Source: Candidatus Latescibacterota bacterium (GTDB lineage: Bacteria; Latescibacterota; UBA2968; UBA8231). Taken from it: a stretch of DNA of 64,000 nt. The notes under the pieces are model-generated. The model worked only from the letters and a program-made list of their open reading frames with translations, was not told the origin of the DNA and did not search any database. Numbering within the stretch: the first letter of the stretch is position 1; each line of letters begins with the position of its first letter. Below, piece by piece: positions 7,850 through 16,143 of the stretch. Both the position numbers and the translations under genes were made by a program. The stretch spans positions 480,001 to 544,000 of the forward strand of contig CBDETK010000013.1 of assembly GCA_965242865.1 (NCBI GenBank), in the 5' to 3' direction.

Positions 7850-8598
7850 CCGCACGGTGCCCCGTCCGCCCCGGATCGAGCGATACCCCTGCTGTCGTCC
7901 ACTGTCGTTCGCCCAAGGGGCGAGGCCGACCCGCGCGGTCACCTTTTTGCCGCTCCACTGGCCTAATTCCGGCAGATACCCCACCAGCGTCGCCGCGGTC
8001 CGCTCGCCGACGCCCGGTACACTCTGGTATAGGGCCGCCGACGCGGCCAGCGAGCCGTTGTTTTTCAACGCCGCCCGGTGGGCTTCCTCCACCTGTGCAA
8101 TCTCTTCGTCGAGCCACTGGAGATGTCGCTCAATGGAGGTGCGGGCCTCTTCGGTCGGCCCTTTGTCCAGCCGCTGGTGCTCCTGCACCCGCTGTTGAAC
8201 CAACGGCTTACGCCGGCGCAGCAGGTCTTGGAGTTCCTCCCGATCGGCTTCCTTGGCCAACGGGCGCGGCATCGGGAAGACCGCCCCATACCGCGCCAGC
8301 ATATCCGGGCGTCCAAAGCGTCGGTCTTGGCCTGGTGACCGGCTGCCCGCACGAAGCGGCGCACGCGATTGGGGTGTGCTACGTGGACCGCCACCCCCAT
8401 GCGCTGCAACCACCGCACCGCCGCCCGCTCATAGCCCCCCGTCGGTTCGCACACCACCTCGGTCGCCCCCTGACGGGTCAACCATGCCCCCAAAACCGCA
8501 AAGCCCGTGGGGGTGTTCTCGAACCGACGCACCGGACCCGCCGACACCGACACGTCCAAACTCCTCTTGCCTACATCCATACCGGCAATGACTTTCAT
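7850..8598 (-). pseudogene. IS110 DEDD recombinase/transposase, frameshifted and 3'-truncated
   Basis: GMDVGK, CEPTGGYE and AKTDALDA in one frame; SVPGVG, VGLAP..NDSG and IRGGR in another. An extra AT at about 8301-8304 shifts the frame, and the usual C-terminal helices are absent. GGAGG RBS at 8607-8611. Confidence 0.9.
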
Positions 8599-16032: not shown

Positions 16033-16086
16033 CTGGATTCCCGCCCCGTGTCGGAGCACGGGGTGACGTTCTTTTGCAGGAATGAC
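16033..16086 (-). repeat. Degenerate REP-like palindrome (GGATTCCCGC...GCAGGAATGAC) with inner CCCCGTG/CACGGGG hairpin
   Basis: Same family as the GTCATTCCCGC...GCGGGAATCC palindrome, in the opposite orientation; sits just downstream of a stop codon. Confidence 0.75.
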
Positions 16087-16143
16087 CGCTAGAGGCGTCA
16101 GGCAAGACGAGCCAAAAGCAATATGAGTGTTAAGAACGCTTCT
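16081..16143. repeat. 63-bp intergenic segment, copy 2
   Basis: Matches 8818-8880. Confidence 0.9.

Follow-up and report, generated by a model that had tools for sequence, protein, structure and literature searches.

The 63 bp that adjoin the left end of an IS110-family element at w8818 and recur at w16081 are very probably the right arm of a MITE (MITE-A below), the core palindrome of which is the target of a decayed RNA-guided IS. The second copy is a paralogous model of the unoccupied target and not the ancestral allele of the w8818 locus. Coordinates preceded by w refer to the window, i.e., the whole 64-kb stretch of DNA analyzed, and those preceded by C13 to a contig of the genome it belongs to (G000, 6 Mb, "own genome" below). 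Other G-numbers denote congeneric genomes, and X1, X2, X4 and X5 are sequencing runs. The features discussed are as follows.

w6943-7836, plus strand: VWA-domain gene (Pfam VWA, E 7e-5; 23.6 bits, slightly short of the cut-off at 23.8)
w7837-7845, plus strand: 9-nt left-end stub of MITE-B, TATAGCAAT, with the remainder deleted and the truncated IS next
w~7851-8598, minus strand: IS110-family transposase pseudogene, amino acids 1-102 and 99-254 of 313, in two frames
w8599-8817, minus strand: IS left end with a predicted bridge-RNA-like non-coding RNA (consensus fold of 17 left ends)
w8638-8644, minus strand: putative right donor guide TTACAAG, in which TACAAG is complementary to CT+TGTA of the left end
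w8663-8669, minus strand: putative left donor guide CGGATAC of the window copy, second loop
w8710-8716, minus strand: putative right target guide GCGGGAG, complement of CTCCCGC (first loop, 3′ side)
w8749-8755, minus strand: putative left target guide CGTCATT, equal to left flank plus core (first loop, 5′ side)
w8818-8879, plus strand: right arm of MITE-A copy 1, with the inverted end ..TTAAGAACGCTTC as its terminus; the corresponding left arm lies at C13:367043-367107 (minus strand)
w8880-8882, no strand: TTA duplication of the copy-1 MITE-A; its counterpart, also TTA, stands in front of the left arm (C13:~367108-367110)
w8964-16002, plus strand: three tandem FG-GAP/FlgD-Ig paralogues, the distal part of an array of which the rest lies inverted at C13:367-408 kb
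w16013-16142, plus strand: MITE-A copy 2, 5′-truncated, core unoccupied (from alignments)
w16037-16083, no strand: long-form core palindrome of copy 2, with ATTCCCGC at w16037-16044 and GCAGGAAT at w16076-16083

The earlier note on this DNA had described w8818-8880 and w16081-16143 as identical at 57 of 63 positions, which an ungapped alignment confirms and which BLAST against the own 6-Mb genome reports as 90.5% over 63 nt (E 2.7e-18). DNA to the left of w8818 is IS110-type, whereas to the left of w16081 it is the remainder of the palindrome, without IS DNA; as the earlier note had also stated, the minus strand of copy 2 reads GGTCATT-CCTGC. The possibility of a two-copy repeat was ruled out by 23 additional BLAST matches to the 63 bp in the own genome. 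A longer query (w15980-16200) returned 72 loci there, a few of them gene-end matches only, and the junction region is common to ~63 junction-anchored loci of the same genome.

Alignment of 25 copies with their flanks gives the layout of the repeat: a left arm, the core palindrome GGATTCCCGC-loop-GCGGGAATGAC and a right arm containing the 63 bp, with outer ends that are inverted repeats of each other. MITE-A measures 132-162 bp, has a 15-bp inverted end (GAAGCGTTCTTAAAA) and is accompanied by a 3-bp TNA duplication. When the own genome was scanned for the 15-nt end with at most two mismatches, 72 sites were found, which form 17 convergent pairs (14 short and three of 924 bp). The 14 short pairs span 132-162 bp, their 3-bp flanks are identical in 10 and TNA stands on both sides in 12. 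Inverted ends and a TNA duplication in paired copies thus identify the repeat as a MITE; it is short, non-coding, multicopy and flanked by a duplication, as MITEs are. In copy 2 the first ~29 nt are gone, the left inverted end among them, and the element starts directly past the stop codon of the FG-GAP gene w13810-16002.

The three 924-bp pairs (C13:4813285-4814208, 5378781-5379704 and 5598671-5599594; 96-97% identical, TNA flanks) are IS5-family elements, each encoding a 271-aa protein with DUF4096 and DDE_Tnp_1 domains. Their ends match those of MITE-A at 13 of 15 positions, which makes them a candidate mobilizing partner. TNA duplication is typical of some IS5 subgroups (ISfinder). MITE-A resembles bacterial IS5-derived MITEs in being small and non-coding, in its inverted ends, TNA duplication and many copies, and in that the own genome also holds larger elements which encode a DDE transposase and have similar ends. 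It differs from them in that its interior holds a REP-like palindrome common to unrelated MITE families, and in the occurrence of interfamily hybrids. The palindrome is also found in MITE-B, which has different arms, ends beginning TAGCAAT and a TA duplication as judged from the empty VWA-FHA site, and in further repeat contexts; a hybrid of a MITE-B left arm and a MITE-A right arm, without IS, lies at C13:4534243. One of the 924-bp IS5-family elements is situated 7 bp from a MITE-A right arm that bears an IS110 left-end remnant.

The center of the palindrome is an 11-mer, GTCATTCCCGC (GTCATT^CCCGC on the minus strand), with 89 exact occurrences in the own genome compared to 4.3 expected from base composition. 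Of the 89, 82 are in palindromic frame; the loop is 4 nt long in 67 of these and 31 nt long in 15. What sets the long form apart from the short form is an inserted hairpin of 27 nt that includes a T run and is terminator-like. Copy 2 has this insert (w16042-16075), and its ~96% identical paralogue at C13:~395060 (minus strand) is without it; in a simple scan, the inner hairpin w16042-16065 of copy 2 together with its T run appears terminator-like. As a high-copy extragenic imperfect palindrome (82 exact cores) the element is REP-like. A REP-associated tyrosine transposase flanked by the core palindrome was not found in the own genome, where the single Y1_Tnp match (30.5 bits, C13:3384741-3384935) has only one half-site nearby; since this sole Y1_Tnp gene is not flanked by the core, the palindrome falls outside REP elements in the strict sense.

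The IS at w7851-8817 is a dead copy of an IS110-family element targeting this palindrome. A tblastn search with the intact protein of G023, together with translation, shows that it is frameshifted and that ~60 C-terminal residues and the right IS end are missing. Its transposase fragments still match DEDD_Tnp_IS110 (PF01548, E 6e-14) and Transposase_20 (PF02371, E 1e-7), and the intact G023 recombinase has both IS110 Pfam domains. The other transposase-bearing copy, at C13:3611555, is 90% identical to the window IS and likewise frameshifted and truncated. No intact IS copy exists in the own genome, only these two broken ones, neither with the intact gene of a functional element. Intact 1.2-kb copies occur in G023 (two copies, 99.9% identical over 1208 bp) and in G014, and it is from such relatives that we infer the activity and guide use of the IS at the level of sequence. 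The nearest relatives are in records titled Latescibacterota, Dehalococcoidia/Chloroflexota and Poribacteria.

Junctions of the intact G023 and G014 copies lie inside the same palindrome, reading GTCATT/TGTATG on the left and GATACT/CCCGC on the right (the slash marks the junction). In the own genome, the left junction was found at 13 IS-derived places among 14 pattern matches; the 14th, C13:4812140, was judged a chance match, no IS sequence following it. The right junction was found in three IS remnants, and all junctions are within the palindrome. The left junction always carries TT and the right always CT, and the uninterrupted target GTCATTCCCGC overlaps both by one T. Insertion falls between GCGGG and AATGAC of the palindrome, i.e., at the TT of GGTCATT on the minus strand, which in copy 2 predicts an insertion point between w16080 and w16081. 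TT on the left and CT on the right place the crossover at that dinucleotide; the TT crossover proposed in the earlier note is thus borne out by the 13 IS-derived left junctions and those of the intact relatives, with the nuance that the donor core is CT. As expected of IS110 elements, there are no terminal inverted repeats and no multi-base duplication, and one fixed target sequence is used.

To examine the left end as a possible RNA, 17 left ends were aligned, four from G000, five from three congeners and eight from more distant records. RNAalifold predicts a structure of 37 pairs, 15 of them compensated on both sides, comprising a 5′ hairpin and two stems, both of which contain an internal loop as well as an inner hairpin. 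The guides sit in the unpaired loop sides of this predicted RNA. The second loop has (A)CAGATAC on its 5′ side, identical to the final bases of the IS; the left donor guide ACAGATAC corresponds to the last right-end bases in G023 and G014 with the second core base mismatched, and in the right donor guide TTACAAG the first T is unpaired. Target guides covary with the flanks. On the right, GCGGGAG accompanies CCCGC, and GCCGGAG accompanies CCGGC in the Chloroflexota copies, both at sequenced right junctions; for the Dehalococcoidia guide CTCGGAG, for which no right junction was recovered, a CCGAG target is suggested by GTCATTCCGAG copies in neighboring flanks. On the left, GTGGAT accompanies GTGGAT in G008a and CACCTGT accompanies CACCTAT in L059. 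The exceptions are G008b and G008c, each of which is in the other's target type; this genuine exception is read as bridge RNAs acting in trans on copies with the same ends. G008 (L004, L008, L009) holds three copies of two IS variants, with left target guides GTGGAT and GTCATT, and two of the three copies occupy the target type of the other variant.

A predicted left-end RNA with two loops, covarying target guides and donor guides matching the IS ends are all characteristic of IS110 elements. An Rfam scan of w7700-9000 returned no bridge RNA family, only sub-threshold chance matches to microRNA and lncRNA models. Judged from these sequence patterns, GTCATT^CCCGC is the putative bridge-RNA-encoded target of the IS110-family element, which, guided by the bridge-type RNA of its left end, would insert between GCGGG and AATGAC of the core.

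Copy 2 was regarded in the earlier note as the pre-insertion state of the w8818 locus, and in this respect the note needs correction. It does give a true picture of an unoccupied target of the IS110-family element. It is, though, a paralogous, 5′-truncated member of a ~24-copy family with other flanking genes; as a same-locus empty site it fails, the orthologous flanks being absent and the neighbors unrelated. Its palindrome was either never hit or vacated. When the flank of an insertion belongs to a repeat family, the second copy of that flank is no empty site, and guide-mismatch arguments drawn from a paralogous repeat copy are unsafe. The note had suggested acceptance of a target with mismatches to the guides, and this survives on one side only. 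On the right, the true target half at the w8818 locus, as seen in the X5 allele, is CCCGC, a perfect match to the right target guide. The CCTGC of copy 2 is a minority variant (GTCATTCCTGC, three times in the own genome), and since it is private to copy 2 no right-side mismatch can be read from that copy. On the left there is a mismatch at position -7, where the flank is GGTCATT in the window, at C13:3611555 and at C13:1975313 compared to the guide CGTCATT; at C13:5378709 and in both G023 copies the flank is CGTCATT, without mismatch. MITE-A arms mostly start AATGACC and MITE-B arms AATGACG. MITE-A would then be a slightly imperfect target, although a change after insertion is possible, the G000 copies being old and decayed.

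The true history of the w8818 locus can be followed in orthologous alleles. A search for VWA orthologues gave 14 loci, of which eight (L094-L101) were examined and L102-L106, partial paralogue matches, were left out. An FHA-domain gene lies directly 3′ of the VWA gene in all eight congeners (G046, G043, G004, G013, G001, G005, G006 and G008). In the four junctions read as sequence, the VWA stop and the FHA start are one base apart (TGATATG); in the other four, BLAST coordinates place the start of FHA homology at the VWA gene end. G046, the closest relative at 92% protein identity, has a complete MITE-B between VWA and FHA; the long-form core of this MITE-B is intact, and no IS is present. A 5441-nt X5 contig from a sponge metagenome of another study is ~97% identical over w6900-7845. 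Past w7845 it has 37 nt in which the left arm of MITE-B is completed, along with the left half of a short-loop palindrome. From w8749, exactly the DNA encoding the left target guide, it follows the window again and ends at w8825, only 8 nt past w8817. The X5 sister strain has thereby kept the palindrome together with a 69-nt stub of the IS left end. The MITE-B core at the VWA-FHA place is of the long form in G046 and of the short form in the X5 allele. Both orthologous alleles, the near-IS-free X5 and the IS-free G046, have the palindrome beside the junction, and the earlier note's view that an allele free of the IS would retain it there is upheld. Contigs of runs X1, X2, X4 and X5 were compared with w6900-9700. 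Short-read contigs of X1 and X2, possibly from the assembly's own sample, match w6900-8125, w8654-8879 and w8851-9700 without difference. In X4, a loose end at w8818 shows 23 nt of uninterrupted core; its locus is ambiguous, and because ~24 copies share the arm it cannot be assigned to w8818.

In the own genome, the FHA gene is not 3′ of VWA and runs from C13:367041 to 364102 on the minus strand. Immediately upstream of it is a clean hybrid, in which a short-loop core joins the left arm of MITE-A (inverted end and TTA flank included) to a right arm of MITE-B; the terminal TA of the latter arm contributes to the FHA start codon. It is here, ~122 kb away (C13:367043-367107), that the w8818 MITE-A has its missing left half, and TTA flanks both separated MITE-A halves (w8880-8882 and 367 kb). 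The hybrid is preceded by the 3′ end of another FG-GAP paralogue, whose G046 orthologue (91% identical) is directly upstream of the genes best matching w8964-13424; the order of FG-GAP paralogues differs between G046 and the window, so that members of the array cannot be paired as orthologues with certainty. All of the ~13 FG-GAP paralogues at C13:367-408 kb have minus-strand orientation, in contrast to the plus strand for the three of the window. The FG-GAP/FlgD-Ig array of ~16 paralogues is split into two oppositely oriented blocks, and G046 has a similar large FG-GAP array at C1:2.17-2.19 Mb.

The location of the left MITE-A half at C13:367 kb implies inversion through the palindromes. Comparison of the sequences makes a single inversion of ~121.8 kb (C13:~367,042-488,817), with both breakpoints in MITE-B/MITE-A cores, probable; the comparison uses one assembly and other species of the genus, which carry further rearrangements, and the breakpoint is placed only within the shared core of ~26 nt. 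Exchange within the palindromes would have left hybrid MITEs at both inversion ends. The order of events may be reconstructed as follows. The VWA and FHA genes were adjacent at the outset, as they are in the congeners. MITE-B then inserted at the TA between them, the state seen in G046, and the IS entered a core palindrome, where its remains are found today. The ~122-kb inversion would have come next, by exchange within the palindromes of that MITE-B and of a MITE-A situated among the arrayed FG-GAP genes; the comparison documents its outcome, and exchange is the presumed mechanism. Finally, the IS decayed differently in two strains, as its remains in the window and in X5 differ. The locus is a rare stepwise natural record of empty site, MITE, IS, inversion and two alternative decays in sister strains.

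Two other accounts of the 63 bp have to be weighed. In the reading suggested by the earlier note, they may form a two-copy promoter module upstream of w8964 and w16197, with copy 2 as the pre-insertion state, and indeed both window copies are 54-84 nt upstream of a co-oriented start codon. The intergenic w15960-16210 is also ~96% identical (hand count) to C13:394927-395140, against 80% for the surrounding 2.2 kb; this high identity around copy 2 could reflect constraint or gene conversion. Against a promoter module stand the 23 other genome copies, the unrelated flanking genes of the two copies (FG-GAP vs DUF4159) and the true left half of copy 1 at C13:367 kb. Moreover, a gene start lies ahead of the right arm in no more than 12 of 24 cases and a gene end in the other 12, orientation being a crude measure taken from the longest ORF in the next 100-700 nt of 24 right arms, without gene calls. 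No sigma-70-like hexamer pair was found inside w8818-8880 or w16081-16143, although promoter types of the host may differ; the only sigma-70-type match is within the IS, upstream of the transposase and on the opposite strand. We consider the two-copy module improbable, and a dedicated promoter role of the 63-bp arm is unlikely. The other account, in which the 63 bp are an extended left end of the IS itself and the remaining copies are solo ends left after IS decay, draws on three sites where arm and IS DNA are directly adjacent (the window, C13:1975308 and C13:5378704). It is scarcely credible, given that the intact IS of G023 and G014 stop at TGTATG, with unrelated DNA past the 7-nt target, that the IS copy at C13:3611555 has a different arm as its flank, and that ~20 arms continue without interruption through the palindrome into a left arm, the inverted end and TNA duplication of which match. 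These observations leave the right arm of MITE-A as the preferred identity of the 63 bp.

For the rearrangement, ordinary homologous recombination between 26-57-bp cores or an assembly artefact could have produced the hybrids, with the IS landing later and playing no role. We regard this as a real possibility, if short of an even chance. The IS-free hybrid at C13:4534243 (MITE-B left, MITE-A right) favors ordinary recombination; every such core is a target of the IS, so that an IS at a breakpoint is little surprise, and the breakpoint can be placed only to the ~26-nt shared core. On the other hand, repeats of 26-57 bp are poor substrates for homologous recombination, which weakens the ordinary-recombination account. 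The window junctions are backed by independent short-read contigs (X1 and X2), and both reciprocal junctions are present with matching TTA duplications. The clean hybrid at 367 kb is the exact product expected of a crossover at the IS core dinucleotide. The exchange may have been made by the recombinase, by two IS copies or by host recombination. It is possible, though doubtful, that the bridge recombinase itself reshaped the chromosome by half-site reactions, with a one-step ~122-kb inversion and solo-end scars as aberrant excisions. An integrated IS junction would recombine with an inverted second target at the core dinucleotide to yield the inversion, which would split both the VWA-FHA gene pair and the FG-GAP tandem array; in the excisions that would yield scars, guide-coding DNA or another internal site would replace the left junction.

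Solo left-end scars were observed at C13:5268133(+), 5334145(+), 119345(+) and 1172956(-), at G046:C1:1854871(+), and in X5 as the joint of w7845 to w8749. Their stubs are either 33 nt, ending at GGCCACT, or 69-70 nt, ending exactly at the DNA encoding the left target guide. In every case the stub passes precisely into CCCGC of the target; the flanks are unrelated, the stubs derive from two IS lineages, and on the right the deletion always stops at the exact end of the IS. Stub patterns were searched in 31 genomes of the genus as exact patterns with no mismatches, so that counts are lower bounds: the 47-70-nt pattern was matched at least three times, in G000 only, and the 33-nt pattern at least twice in G000 and at least once in G046. 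A 47-nt insert between GTCATT and a second GTCATT/CCCGC was seen at C13:900516(-), 1142368(+), 2640420(+) and 4129339(+); its first 19 nt come from a left end of the C13:1975313-type IS, and it could be a mini-element or another scar class.

IS621 is reported to undergo half-match recombination, with excision depending on the donor arm (Xie et al., 2026; 10.64898/2026.08.31.748434). This offers a possible frame for the solo-end scars and for the junction-by-second-target recombination proposed here. The scars would differ in requiring that a left-target look-alike, the guide-coding DNA, be recognized, a purely inferential step. The locus gives candidate natural traces of off-pathway bridge recombination.

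It is already well known that IS110 elements insert into extragenic palindromes; the unusual by-products here are inversion through target sites and stereotyped scars. IS621, with its bridge RNA, uses REP elements of E. coli as insertion sites (Durrant et al., 2024; PMC11208160). IS621 shares with the present system a DEDD recombinase with Transposase_20 and a left-end non-coding RNA with two internal loops. The left guide equals left target plus core and the right guide is complementary to core plus right target in both, and both have a fixed position in a high-copy extragenic palindrome and a donor core CT. There are also differences: the host differs at phylum level, the target is GTCA-TT-CCCGC here and ATCAGGC-CT-AC in IS621, the target core here is TT while donor core and right target guide read CT, and the window copy is dead. 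A type 1 association of IS110-family elements with REPs has been reported for ISPa11, ISPpu9, ISPpu10 and ISRm19 (Tobes and Pareja, 2006; PMC1525189), and the present case is of this known type; these elements share with ours the same palindrome position in every IS copy and joined flanks that rebuild the repeat. They differ in that the palindrome here is embedded in MITEs with their own inverted ends and duplications. In ISPpu10, a target stem-loop adjoins the base-paired target (Na et al., 2026; 10.64898/2026.03.19.712850), and the present target resembles it in having a hairpin beside the paired bases. A further difference is that no link of the palindrome to a REP-associated tyrosine transposase was found here. 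In the titles and opening lines of abstracts examined, no IS110 target embedded in MITEs is described. Our findings add a bridge-recombinase lineage from sponge-associated, uncultured bacteria. With guides, target, donor ends and natural guide variants readable from genomes alone, it could serve as a further bridge-recombinase orthologue.

Two other repeats were observed in the window. At w1-3200 there is an array of 99-bp tandem units, with at least 24 copies of 60-87% mutual identity, the sequence of which suggests ankyrin-type repeats in a coding region. Another dispersed repeat of ~120 bp lies between the first two FG-GAP genes (w11112-11231) and has more than 20 matches in G046 at 83-90% identity.
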